In this document: piece after piece, positions 1-49,134 of the stretch
Numbering within the stretch: the first letter of the stretch is position 1
Layout: each line of letters opens with the position of its first letter
From: Spirochaetota bacterium
Lineage (GTDB): Bacteria > Spirochaetota > UBA4802 > JAFGDQ01
Direction of reading: 5' to 3'
Length of the DNA: 49,134 bases
Assembly: GCA_043803405.1 (NCBI GenBank)
Contig: JAZDKB010000032.1
Coordinates: forward strand, 1 to 49,134
The notes under the pieces: generated by a model
What the model was told of the DNA's origin: nothing
Databases searched by the model: none
The model's input: only the letters and a program-made list of their open reading frames with translations
Program-made: the position numbers and the translations under genes

Positions 1-108
1 TATCTGGCAATAACAAATATATCCAGAAAATGGACAAGGCCTATTGTCGAATGGGGGCTTGCATTGAATCAGTTTGCTATACATTTTGGAGATAGAGTGA
101 ATATCTAA
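1..108 (+). CDS. IS256-family transposase, C-terminal fragment (5' truncated by window)
   Basis: Frame 1 reads YLAITNISRKWTRPIVEWGLALNQFAIHFGDRVNI*, matching the typical IS256 C-terminus (YLA...KW..P...W..AL.QF.I.F.DR); followed directly by a terminal IR. Confidence 0.9.
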   Translation, partial: YLAITNISRKWTRPIVEWGLALNQFAIHFGDRVNI

Positions 109-139
109 TATCTGTTTACACAAAAAATATTACACTCTC
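1..139 (+). mobile_element. IS256-family element, right end (IRR 112-139)
   Basis: Reverse complement of 112-139 is GAGAGTGTAATATTTTTTGTGTAAACAG, 23/28 identical to the left IR at 48995-49022. Confidence 0.9.
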
Positions 140-140
140 G

Positions 141-537
141 AGGATGCTTCCGTTTTTTGTTGAAACATTAATGCTCTGTCGGAAAACCGATGTGTTCTAA
201 CGGAAAACACATCGGTTCTGGTTAAAACATTTATGCTCTGACAAAGAACACTATGGTTTTGCTGTAAAACATATATGTTTTATCAAAGAACATTATGGTT
301 TTAATGCAGAACATATTGGTCCTGGCCAAAACATATGTATTCTGACAAAGAACATAATGGTTCTGCAATAAAACAATTTGGATTTAGCGGTAATCCATAT
401 GTTTTGCATACAATACATGATCGTTTTGCCGGGAATCATGCTGGTTTTTTAATTAAGCATTTGCGTTTTAGTGGAGAACTGTTAGGTTTTAAAGTAAAGA
501 AGATCGGATTTATAGAGGTGCGAGTTGGGATTAGGTT
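141..537. repeat. Degenerate tandem array, 21-bp period, about 18 units, unit ARAAC-N6-GTTYT-N5
   Basis: The C of the AAC half-site recurs at 166,187,208,228,249,270,291,312,332,353,374,395,416,437,458,479; example unit AGAAC ATAATG GTTCT GCAAT (349-369). Confidence 0.9.
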
Positions 538-47070: not shown

Positions 47071-47973
47071 CTATTCAGGGGGATTAAGGTCGTCGGGCGG
47101 GGTTGAGAAATGAATAAGGTACACAGCTGCGGATGAAAACACGCCTCCGATAATTGTAGTTAGTTCGGGAGTTTCGTGAAGAAATATCCAGCTGAGTATT
47201 ACCGCGCTTAACGGTACCAGAAAAGTAAAAACGCTTGCTTTGTGCGAGCCTATGTGTTTCGCAGCAAAAAAATATACCGAGGTCGCAAAAACAGTTGAGA
47301 CGAGGGACAGGTAAATCATAAGCATCCAGAAAGAAAATTCGGCTGGAAATATTTTACTATTAATTCCATGGGGCAAAGTAAAGAATGCCTGGAGCAATAC
47401 TGCGAAGCCGTTCAGGTAAAAGCTGTATGTCCAGATGGAAACTCGTGACTGTGTTTTTTGGCTGTTGATGGTTACTCCTGCCCACAGGACACCCCCTGCT
47501 ATAAAAAAAAGATTCCCGGAAGTAAAAAGCTTATCTATGCTTAGGCTCCAGATTTTAATAATGATAAGCGTTCCGATTAAGCCGATAATGAGGCCCGCAG
47601 CATCGCGTTTGCCGAGCCGTTTGCCTGTAAACGCAATCATGAAACCGAACGTGACAACAGGCACAAGCGAGGTTACGAGCACTCCGCCCAGGCCAGCGGT
47701 TCCGAGCGACAGCCCGAGAAAAAATGCCTGGCTATATAAAGTATAAAAAAGGCTGCCGGTAAAAATCTTTAATGCCGTAGTTTTGTCAATTAGCAGCCTT
47801 TCTCTGTTCATGAGAACAGGAGGCAGAAAAAACAGGAAAGTGAGCAGAAACCTGACGAATGCGAGCTGCTGAAAGTGCAGGTTATGCGAAATCGCTTTTG
47901 CGCATACCCATGACCCTCCCCAGATTGTCATTGCGATTATCATTAAAAAAAGAAATTTAAAATTTCGGTTCAT
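47071..47973 (-). CDS. DMT/EamA family transporter
   Basis: IWGGSW, about 10 TM helices, duplicated EamA pattern, LVP..AVILSWIFLHE. Confidence 0.9.
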   Translation of the reverse strand: MNRNFKFLFLMIIAMTIWGGSWVCAKAISHNLHFQQLAFVRFLLTFLFFLPPVLMNRERLLIDKTTALKIFTGSLFYTLYSQAFFLGLSLGTAGLGGVLVTSLVPVVTFGFMIAFTGKRLGKRDAAGLIIGLIGTLIIIKIWSLSIDKLFTSGNLFFIAGGVLWAGVTINSQKTQSRVSIWTYSFYLNGFAVLLQAFFTLPHGINSKIFPAEFSFWMLMIYLSLVSTVFATSVYFFAAKHIGSHKASVFTFLVPLSAVILSWIFLHETPELTTIIGGVFSSAAVYLIHFSTPPDDLNPPE

Positions 47974-48168
47974 GAAGTTATTATATATTCAGAATAAATG
48001 CCTGTCCCGGCAGCAATGTACTTTGAAATATTGACAATTAACAATATCTTTGGCTATTATCTTGCATACAACATTTTTATTTTAAGGCATAATAAACCGG
48101 TGTTCGTGTCGAGGATGAAAGACAATTCCTGTAGATAAAAAATTTTACACATTTTTTTAATTATTTGC

Positions 48169-48198
48169 TTGCAAAGTTTTCTTAATACCTGTTATCCT
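48169..48198 (+). promoter_or_regulatory. Putative sigma-70 promoter with extended -10 for the 159-aa gene
   Basis: TTGCAA-N18-TATCCT with TGn immediately before the -10. Confidence 0.4.
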
Positions 48199-48315
48199 GA
48201 CGGATTTTGCAAATTTACGTCCATATCCCGCGATACTTGCCAGAAGGCAATGTTCGTTTACCAATGCTGCCGCAAAATCAAAATATTATAATAAACAATT
48301 TAAGAGGTAAATTTT

Positions 48316-48795
48316 ATGGCACAGAAAAATATGGTGTCTGTAAGTTTTTCGGAAACAGATATAAGGGACATAAATAACGCAATTGCGGTTCTGAAAAACA
48401 CTCTTCTGCCGAAGCTTAAAGAGCTTAAGCCGGAAGAAAAAAAGAACTACCCGCTTATGGGAGACAAATCAATAGCATTTGTCCAGAAGGCCCTTGAATA
48501 TTGCGGCTATAATGAGGAGCTTACCCCGAAATTTTTTGATGCAGATGAATTCACCAGGGATTTCAAGGCAGTTGAAGTAATGCGCAATTTCCGGGCTCCT
48601 TTGACACAGATATCCAATATGCTTATGGATACCATGTGTCTTGCAGGCACCGATTCATTCTCTGCTGCCCTTATGTTTTACAATTCGGTTAAAATAGCGC
48701 GAAAAGCGAATATCCCGAAATCCCAGACTATTCACGACGAGCTTGCTAAAAGGTTCCCGGGTAAAGGAGGCGATCCGGATTCGGAAGAGAAGTAA
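48316..48795 (+). CDS. Conserved-type all-helical hypothetical protein (MGDKS..FV.KA motif)
   Basis: GAGG RBS; L.PEEKK.YP.MGDKSIAFVQKALEY, DT...AG.D....AL.FY..VK, EL..RF pattern, which I recognise from memory as a widespread uncharacterised family. Confidence 0.8.
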   Translation: MAQKNMVSVSFSETDIRDINNAIAVLKNTLLPKLKELKPEEKKNYPLMGDKSIAFVQKALEYCGYNEELTPKFFDADEFTRDFKAVEVMRNFRAPLTQISNMLMDTMCLAGTDSFSAALMFYNSVKIARKANIPKSQTIHDELAKRFPGKGGDPDSEEK

Positions 48796-48854
48796 AAAAA
48801 ATTTTCTGATGTATGATAATTCTCTCAAATATACCATAAAAAACTCCTAGTATA

Positions 48855-48895
48855 GAGCAGGAGCGCCGGCTTTAAACAGCCGGCGTTTCTGTTTT
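48855..48895 (+). terminator. Intrinsic terminator after the 159-aa gene
   Basis: CGCCGGCT-TTAAAC-AGCCGGCG followed by TTTCTGTTTT. Confidence 0.75.
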
Positions 48896-48994
48896 AAAAG
48901 GCCATGTTCCCTGATTATGCCTGAAAATTTCCATCCAGAACAGGAAAGTTGCTATTCCGAACTGCAAATTTCCCATACAGCCTCTCGACATTGG
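48895..48994. repeat. Start of a degenerate 21-bp-period array cut by IS256
   Basis: Units begin at 48895, 48916, 48937 (AGAAC AGGAAA GTTGC TATTC), 48958 (CGAAC TGCAAA TTTCC CATAC) and 48979 (partial). Confidence 0.55.
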
Positions 48995-49134
48995 GAGAGT
49001 GTAAAAAAGATTGTGTAAACAGCCATAGAATAAATAATTGAAGACAGAGGAGAAGAAAATGGCTGAAGGAAAAGAAATAGTAGAAGAACTGTTAAAGCAG
49101 ATAGATTTTAAGAATTTAACAGTAAATCAGATAA
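48995..49134 (+). mobile_element. IS256-family element, left end (IRL 48995-49022)
   Basis: GAGAGTGTAAAAAAGATTGTGTAAACAG, complementary to 112-139; transposase start follows. Confidence 0.88.
49059..49134 (+). CDS. IS256-family transposase, N-terminal fragment (truncated by window)
   Basis: GAGGAG RBS then MAEGKEIVEELLKQIDFKNLTVNQI..., inside the IRL. Confidence 0.8.
   Translation, partial: MAEGKEIVEELLKQIDFKNLTVNQI

Follow-up and report, generated by a model that had tools for sequence, protein, structure and literature searches.

The window is the whole of contig C32 (49,134 nt), which breaks off at either end within a copy of the same insertion sequence. Towards the right-hand end there is a gene for a 159-aa protein, followed by a terminator and by a 21-bp array that runs up to the insertion sequence. 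At the left-hand end, a second array of another unit class adjoins another copy of the same element. The features are as follows, with the positions of the window.

1–139, plus strand: right end of one copy of the IS256-family element (a different copy is at 48995–49134), with the target duplication GAGGATGC leading to the end of contig C3
141–537, no strand assigned: 21/42-bp orphan array whose units belong to a different class, with AAAACAT..ATGTTTT and AGAAC-N6-GGTTCT palindromes
48031–48060, plus strand: best sigma-70-like promoter candidate 5′ of the gene (TTGACA-18-TATTAT, 11/12 match, consensus scan)
48316–48795, plus strand: gene of the 159-aa all-helical protein (open reading frame, motifs MGDKSxAFVxKALEY and AGSxxxxAAL)
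48833–48864, minus strand: terminator-like hairpin, back to back with the terminator of the gene (consensus scan)
48860–48898, plus strand: intrinsic terminator of the 159-aa gene (12-pair stem at 48860–48889, dG −22.1 kcal/mol, then a TGTTTT T-tract)
48896–48994, no strand assigned: gene-proximal 21-bp array of 4–5 units, the best copies with a GCAAATTTCC-type core
48987–48994, no strand assigned: 8-bp target-site duplication GACATTGG, with its second copy at the end of contig C27
48995–49134, plus strand: left end of an IS256-family copy, with its terminal inverted repeat and the first part of the transposase gene, inside which the contig ends

An AGAGG Shine-Dalgarno sequence is present 8 nt 5′ of the ATG of the 159-aa gene. 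The upstream neighbour (47071–47973) is on the minus strand and the gene therefore stands alone, as an earlier, sequence-only reading of this DNA had described it. The strong terminator that was noticed behind the gene in the same reading is also there; it is absent from the list given by the consensus scan, and its fold was computed separately. The minus-strand hairpin does appear in that list, at 48864–48843. The promoter-like site of that reading is kept only as a candidate at another position: the consensus scan has no match at 48169, and the best match on the plus strand is the one at 48031–48060.

The split array and the insertion sequence

Directly behind the terminator, the 21-bp-spaced units that had been read by eye are borne out by the identity of the segment 48896–48994 to itself at a lag of 21 (0.462 versus 0.252 ± 0.049 in mononucleotide shuffles, with none of 2,000 shuffles reaching 0.462). 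The remaining lags in the range 8–59 give identities of up to 0.379 in this segment. With Tandem Repeats Finder at a minimum score of 30, no repeat is reported there.

The element that cuts the array starts at 48995. A full copy of it on contig C36 is about 1,316 bp long and encodes a 413-aa Transposase_mut protein (PF00872, E 1e-118), on account of which the element belongs to the IS256 family, the family that had been named in the sequence-only reading. The hallmarks of the family are present (a Mutator-type transposase, a length of about 1.3 kb, and an 8-bp target duplication). The 8-bp target duplications pair ends of insertion sequences across contigs, and at least five insertions are paired in this way.

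Through the duplication GACATTGG, the array of the window is matched to the end of C27, where a distal part of about 260 bp (12–13 units) follows in the 21-bp phase, with the cores GGCAAATTGCC / GGGAAATTGCC / CCCAAATTTGG in 21-bp register. The array thus does not stop at the element, since the end of C27 carries it on. In total, the whole array that is split by the insertion sequence has about 17 units; once joined, its lag-21 identity is 0.456 versus 0.250 ± 0.024 in the null. Past the array part of C27 comes the start of an amidohydrolase-like gene (named by reading its translated start). The array of the window was split later, by an IS256-family insertion.

Such insertions are frequent in arrays of this genome. 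A periodicity excess of 0.15 or more is observed in 5 of 16 flanks of the insertion sequence, with a sixth at 0.13, and 0.33% of 3,000 random 300-bp windows have such a periodicity excess. Five of about nine insertions are in, or at the edge of, 21/42/63-bp arrays. The IS256-family copies in this genome hit such arrays about a hundred times above chance.

The left-hand array (141–537) has periods of 21 and 42 in Tandem Repeats Finder and a lag-21 identity of 0.463. The likeness that had been noticed between it and the array behind the gene holds for the period and for the palindromic style and fails for the unit itself, with only six 8-mers in common. The left-hand array had also been suggested to be part of a paralogous module, the gene of which would lie beyond the start of the window. 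The target duplication GAGGATGC links that start to the end of C3. By reading of its sequence, the terminal gene of C3 is a 442-aa radical-SAM methylthiotransferase-like open reading frame; with the family HMM, no homologue of the 159-aa protein is found at this end of C3. The suggestion is therefore abandoned, and the array at 141–537 is an orphan array and not a paralogous module.

The protein family and the arrays behind its genes

In the source databases the protein is annotated as "hypothetical". A word-indexed search gives 27 relatives, and a family profile built from 22 of them and run on 1.84 billion cluster representatives gives 3,788 representatives at E ≤ 1e-3 (2,104 at E ≤ 1e-10), nearly all of about 160 aa. 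In a set limited to a single genome for each species, 582 matches to the pattern were obtained, and 513 of them are confirmed as members of the family. The best 80 of these 513 were taken for a survey of loci and occur in Spirochaetota, Bacteroidota, several Pseudomonadota, Verrucomicrobiota, Myxococcota, KSB1, Caldithrix, and one Bacillota MAG. Cultured carriers are Tannerella forsythia, Pedobacter, and Solitalea. Among viral contigs (2.9 million), none of 51 pattern hits is confirmed, and tblastn against 72,556 plasmids gives no match to the family. Besides this genome itself, 3 of 30 relatives carry the family, a patchy distribution with varying genomic contexts. In the comparison of synteny with genomes of the same genus, conservation of the probe is limited to its panC part and, for that reason, there is no usable empty site.

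The 159-aa protein has no family match in Pfam, NCBIfam, or PHROGs. In the Pfam search on 22 members there is no match to a DNA-binding domain (ribbon-helix-helix or HTH); weak DUF6874 matches occur in 5 of 22 members (best E 0.02). PADLOC gives a sub-threshold match to PtuA alone (E 0.014, 12.5 bits), and no match to PDB sequences has an E below 0.04. Six longer members contain no Pfam domain above cut-off, with one sub-threshold Suf match (16.6 bits vs. 24.7), and no fused forms are found among proteins of 365–2000 aa (weak evidence). The AlphaFold2 model is all-helical and includes a 55-residue helix (pLDDT 87, pTM 0.67). With this model, Foldseek gives nothing usable against the PDB (best E 0.46) or the BFVD (best E 0.35); in the wide fold search with VIA, the best match (Z 5.5) is within the noise range for helical models, as are two small terminases (Z 5.0 and 4.5). 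In the Atlas, there are hypothetical clusters only and no named one.

The residues most strongly conserved among 139 members are N5, F55, V56, K58, P71, D82, D105, G111, S112, E113, Y122, K126, R146, and F147. The median net charge of these members is −2, slightly acidic on average, with a C-terminal tail that is usually basic, and there is no conserved histidine pair. The literature that was searched holds no description of the family or of 21-bp arrays of this type.

The linkage between gene and array was measured independently of annotation, in the 72 of the 80 loci with enough downstream sequence. In 60 of 72 homologous loci, the downstream identity is highest at a lag of 21 or 42 bp, versus 7 of 75 upstream controls. 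At lag 21, the mean best-window identity is 0.582 downstream versus 0.385 upstream; at the other lags, it is about 0.35 on both sides. Over the 80 loci, Tandem Repeats Finder gives 77 rows with period 21, 29 with period 42, nine with period 63, and four with period 84, and these repeats are almost all 30–600 bp downstream of the gene. Of the 12 loci (out of 72) with no peak at 21 or 42 bp, four peak at 41 or 43. In three loci (L014, L025, and L033), the array is upstream of the gene instead.

All four homologues of this genome (on C32, C47, and C6, and a truncated copy on C18) have a downstream array, and so do the copies in the relatives (four of four). In three other genomes, six of eight further paralogue loci have an array, one of them at period 22; the two that have none are the most divergent copy (L084) and a partial match (L086). 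The gap between gene and array has a median of 98 bp, and a hairpin with a T-tract is present between the two in 25 of 45 loci in a first count and in 22 of 41 in the enrichment test. When the 786 open reading frames of the 80 loci are clustered, no true neighbour occurs in more than three loci, and the clusters next after the family are antisense shadows of the family itself. The linkage persists across phyla at 35–50% protein identity, while all other neighbours change.

The sequence-only reading had taken protein and array to form a module and had put forward, as a check, a comparison of 21-bp periodicity behind homologues and in controls; the enrichment is found, and the module is supported by it. 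The statement, in the same reading, of a widespread and uncharacterised family with repeats downstream is borne out by the 3,788 representatives, by the lack of a family or fold match, and by the 60 of 72 loci. The gene of the 159-aa protein and the non-coding 21-bp array are one conserved two-part module.

Unit classes and structure of the arrays

Paralogues within one genome have different unit classes. In this genome, the class of the window (GGCAAATTGCC core) recurs at the junction of C4 and C1, where it is also split by an insertion sequence, and at 56.4 kb of C1; the class of the C47 paralogue recurs at 125.7 kb of C15 and that of the C6 paralogue at 60.5 kb of C47. The Tannerella genome has three classes, and each recurs, with no homologue beside it, at one to three other loci; the sibling arrays there include mini-arrays of two units, which lie in unrelated intergenic sites. 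One Tannerella orphan array has about 200 bp of distal flank in common with a gene-linked array and for this reason looks like a segmental duplication rather than a transposition. Several 21/42/63-bp arrays of this genome belong to classes without an adjoining homologue, and arrays therefore do not need an adjoining protein of the 159-aa family.

The similarity of units does not track that of proteins (Spearman 0.05, p 0.17, 741 pairs), and the co-variation of unit consensus with protein clade that the sequence-only reading had proposed to test is not found. Units are common only to near-identical proteins (>80% identity). L017 and L067, whose proteins are 41% identical, have units that agree at 20 of 21 positions and run in opposite orientations. 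An autoregulatory operator was considered and rejected: the array motif in the promoter of its own gene has a mean z of 0.39 and ranks first in 2 of 37 loci, in a test that is confounded by composition.

Arrays are about 4–21 units long. The period is kept at 21 bp, often with a 42-bp super-period, and the letters of the unit vary from array to array; in L009, L017, L048, L067, L081, and L083, the units are about 90% identical or more at all 21 positions. The coding of heptad peptides (21 bp being seven codons) was rejected, with stops in all six frames in 8 of 48 arrays, no consistent frame, and near-identical units in both orientations. In Rfam at gathering thresholds, no family covers the arrays of 19 loci other than the window; the matches outside the arrays are a cobalamin riboswitch, an FMN riboswitch, and a group II intron. 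A scan of the genome with a regular expression for motif clusters was uninformative.

The reverse-complement symmetry of the units is on average 12.5 of 21 positions versus 10.5 in shuffles. Palindromy is significant (p ≤ 0.05) in 12 of 48 arrays and not significant in the other 36. With 45 unit matrices rotated and oriented together, a common motif of 8.55 bits is obtained (nulls, 4.3–4.7), A-C-C-T-C-A-A-A-G-.-T-.-C-A-A-.-.-T-T-G. In this motif, an 11-bp odd palindrome (ACCT-n3-AGGT) alternates with a 10-bp even palindrome (GCAAwwTTGC), and the two dyads are therefore 10.5 bp apart. The orientation of the motif relative to the gene is 25:20. In the 21 arrays with the highest symmetry, the dyad-related positions comprise 1,781 Watson–Crick combinations, 186 G-T, 178 A-C, and 659 others. 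Since G-T and A-C are about equally frequent, neither the strand asymmetry nor the G-U tolerance of selected RNA hairpins is present. Terminators specific to the array were also looked for and rejected as not enriched: minus-strand terminators in the gap occur in 12 of 41 loci and those beyond the array in 11 and 10 of 41, close to the 7 of 41 in the control. The indirect evidence on the array leans toward DNA rather than RNA.

Proposed role and known systems

Phased sites in double-stranded DNA, to be bound by a protein of two-fold symmetry, fit the arrays best, given the fixed 21-bp period, the two-dyad lattice, the absence of a set orientation, and the absence of a coding or RNA-pairing signature. 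The reading that we prefer, tentatively and with a little less than even confidence, is that the protein binds DNA and that the phased sites of the array are its cognate sites. The product of the adjacent gene would be the sole conserved candidate for a binder of the array. Because 21 bp is two turns of B-DNA, all sites are on one face of the helix. Symmetric dimers are predicted to be seated on the array every two helical turns and, since the sites all face one side, a protein with two-fold symmetry could cover the array in one unbroken nucleoprotein strip. The protein may nucleate on the array beside its own gene and occupy the sibling arrays in trans. Candidate roles of coated arrays are the marking or bridging of the chromosome, insulation, and that of a selfish linked pair.

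Several observations count against DNA binding. On the side of the protein, there is no recognisable DNA-binding domain or fold, the family is slightly acidic, and D82, D105, and E113 are among the best-conserved residues. On the side of the arrays, the units are uncoupled from the protein sequences (Spearman 0.05), 36 of 48 arrays have no significant palindromy, the motif is not a general feature of the promoter of its own gene, and orphan arrays exist. The 12 of 72 loci with no 21/42-bp peak and the three loci with an upstream array point the same way.

Plasmid centromere modules with iterated sites include ParR-parC (R1/pSK41), SopB-sopC (F), and the omega sites of pSM19035. The present module resembles ParR-parC and SopB-sopC in having a gene for a small protein beside tandem short sites that are often palindromic and are phased with the helix. 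A feature proper to the centromere modules is that the protein forms a continuous complex on the sites, which here is a prediction. Unlike ParR-parC and SopB-sopC, the module has no partner NTPase (ParM, ParA, or SopA), with no neighbour cluster in more than three of the 80 loci, and it is found on none of the 72,556 plasmids or 2.9 million viral contigs. In the Pfam search, its protein gives no ribbon-helix-helix or HTH signature, the fold searches (Foldseek, best E 0.46; VIA, best Z 5.5, within noise) being uninformative on this point. It is, in contrast to centromere modules, chromosomal, with several paralogues per genome and sibling arrays elsewhere. The iterons of theta-replicating plasmids are direct repeats of 17–22 bp, about two helical turns apart, beside the gene of their binder. 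Here too repeats at about two-turn spacing stand next to a protein gene, the binding being predicted, but there is neither a Rep-type winged-helix protein nor a plasmid context, and the arrays are longer (about 4–21 units). By analogy, the module would work most like centromere or iteron modules, yet it lacks their partner NTPase and their carriage on plasmids, and it matches no known fold.

That the arrays have nothing to do with the protein is improbable. They would then be a general class of satellite or curved DNA in bacteria, to which host factors bind, if anything does, with the gene merely co-inherited, possibly through insulation, through termination, or because arrays are born easily behind the gene. 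The several 21/42/63-bp arrays of this genome with no homologue nearby, the consensus unit with its A/T-rich centres at 10.5-bp intervals (a feature of curved DNA), and the uncoupling of unit and protein sequences agree with such independence. However, the linkage survives across phyla at 35–50% identity while the neighbours change, each paralogue in one genome keeps a different class, and a purely structural element would need no shared base-specific motif.

REP/BIME repeats with RAYT genes (REPIN-RAYT) combine a HUH/Y1 transposase-like protein with two-sided repeats at hundreds of loci. As in REPIN-RAYT systems, a separate class of palindromic repeat goes with each paralogue, the class is dispersed in the chromosome, and insertion sequences land in the repeats, for which REP/BIME elements are a precedent. 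The module could accordingly be imagined as one in which the arrays spread by themselves and the protein copies, moves, or maintains its own class, and we consider this unlikely. It would explain one array beside the gene together with scattered siblings, including the two-unit mini-arrays at unrelated intergenic sites, and it agrees with the patchy occurrence among relatives (3 of 30) in varying contexts; the conserved Y122, D82, D105, E113, K58, and R146 could form an active site. Against it, the family has no HUH/Y1 or other transposase or nuclease signature in Pfam and no conserved histidine pair, the fold searches being uninformative on this point. The arrays are head-to-tail and on one side of the gene only (60 of 72 downstream, 7 of 75 upstream), whereas REPs are two-sided, and sibling arrays are at one to three other loci per class in this genome and in Tannerella (two to four loci per class in all), far fewer than the hundreds of REPs. 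One of the orphans, with its common flank of about 200 bp, has the look of a segmental duplication, and no target duplications were seen at the mini-arrays in an unsystematic look.

A last alternative places the function in RNA: the array would give rise to a transcript that the protein binds or is guided by, as in TIGR-Tas. A TIGR array (for tandem interspaced guide RNA) is made of two alternating repeats of 8–12 nt with variable spacers of about 9 nt, in a unit of about 36 nt, and its transcript is cut into guide RNAs of unit length. TasA is a small all-helical protein (a solo Nop-domain protein) beside 5–15 tandem short units; the super-unit is two-halved (36 = 2 × 18) and bound by a symmetric dimer, and the sequence conservation is too low for repeat finders (PMC12045711). 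TIGR-Tas is also treated in a second source (10.64898/2026.09.09.750476). The likeness is in the general layout, with a compact all-helical protein, tandem super-units of two halves (42 = 2 × 21), pseudo-two-fold symmetry, and arrays that repeat finders detect poorly. The AT skew leans weakly to the gene strand (positive in 30 and negative in 13 of 45 arrays, Wilcoxon p 0.12), and the minus-strand terminator-like hairpin between gene and array in the window would also suit an array transcript.

We nevertheless give this RNA alternative a small probability. The period is 21/42 here and 18/36 in TIGR arrays, and the well-kept arrays have no variable spacers, since in many arrays (L009, L017, L048, and L081 among them) the units are near-identical at all 21 positions. 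At the dyad positions no constraint at the RNA level is seen, G-U not exceeding A-C, and the orientation is not fixed. In 22 of 41 loci there is a terminator between gene and array, and minus-strand or array-distal terminators (10–12 of 41) are not clearly more frequent than in the control (7 of 41). A look-up of sequencing runs for 48169–48994 gives none. No Rfam family matches, and the Nop domain has no match at E ≤ 1 in the Pfam search on 22 members; no Tas or Nop chain is among the fold matches listed, though there may be a distant relation. Unlike most TIGR loci, the family resides in chromosomes and is not found on viral contigs. A 2026 survey of periodic intergenic arrays gives, in the part at hand, periods of 5, 18, and 60–79 nt with a few others, and 21 is not among these (10.64898/2026.10.21.760802).

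One may go further, with marked doubt, and see in the module a new chromosomal protein-plus-array system. In it, a stand-alone helical protein would write or occupy a private class of 21-bp satellite at several places, with one array welded to its gene, the classes of paralogues would be orthogonal, and the insertion of IS256 elements would be steered. In bacteria, such a system would correspond to sequence-specific satellite chromatin, or else be a self-propagating array. Loci with an array and a protein (CRISPR, TIGR, centromeres) have repeatedly proved to be systems with a logic of their own, and the present module fails the defining tests of each. Thousands of sequence clusters across Bacteroidota, Spirochaetota, Pseudomonadota, Verrucomicrobiota, and other phyla follow the simple rule that a 21-bp array comes behind the gene.

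The module offers a pair that is directly testable, one small protein and one short DNA, and the targeting by IS256-family elements offers a second handle. For annotation, it accounts for a class of intergenic repeats that breaks assemblies: in this genome and in that of Tannerella, contigs end inside arrays or in insertion sequences lodged there.

IS256-family insertions and the arrays that they adjoin

In about five of its nine insertions in the window's own genome (G000), the IS256-family element lies inside a 21/42/63-bp array or borders one, and a periodicity excess of at least 0.15 occurs in 5 of 16 flanks of the element, versus 0.33% of random windows. These figures suggest that this element has a target preference for such arrays. 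The copies, flanks, and two of the arrays are:

Window 1-139 and 48995-49134; G000 contigs C2, C3, C4, C1, C27, C30, and C33: IS256-family copies or flanks
Window 141-537: orphan 21/42-bp array, ~18 units, AAAACAT..ATGTTTT palindromes
G000 C2:40033-40437 and C4:119-159: 63-bp (3 x 21) array, 5.3 copies, directly adjoining an IS copy; at two insertions, a second copy of the element's terminal repeat, 20-29 bp long, ahead of the element

The left array of the window is flanked by the IS end and by a lipoprotein-like gene that starts at 641. It originally stood, prior to the insertion, behind a gene of contig C3 that, from its sequence, we take to be radical-SAM methylthiotransferase-like; no cognate protein was found for this array.

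Further array classes and sibling arrays

G000 C33:40972-41191, C6:47198-47351, and C26:10203-10359: three arrays of unit ATTTGTGAAGTTATAATCATA
G000 C10:140958-141700, C44:26741-26842, and C20:103590-103701: three loci of a 21-bp repeat, GCCGTAGGGACGGGTCACC
Tannerella genome G001, L070:3771-3980 (gene-linked) and L093:607-785 (orphan): arrays of one class

The ATTTGTGAAGTTATAATCATA arrays have a lag-21 identity of 0.71-0.79, with no homologue of the 159-aa protein near any of the three. At one of its three loci, the GCCGTAGGGACGGGTCACC repeat follows a 163-aa ORF, a putative DUF559-type endonuclease judging by its sequence. In the Tannerella pair, ~200 bp beyond the distal array end are common to both loci (86-93% identity), which points to segmental duplication as the probable origin of at least some sibling arrays.

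Hairpins and assembly breaks

Window 48833-48898: a pair of terminator-like hairpins, one per strand and placed back to back, separating the 159-aa gene from its array

The minus-strand hairpin would halt transcription arriving from the array side, though the gene that follows downstream is co-directional.

Contigs C194 and C178 of the Tannerella genome (L095 and L098) both terminate inside one array class, their array ends being 100% identical over 74 bp; such arrays therefore interrupt short-read assemblies.
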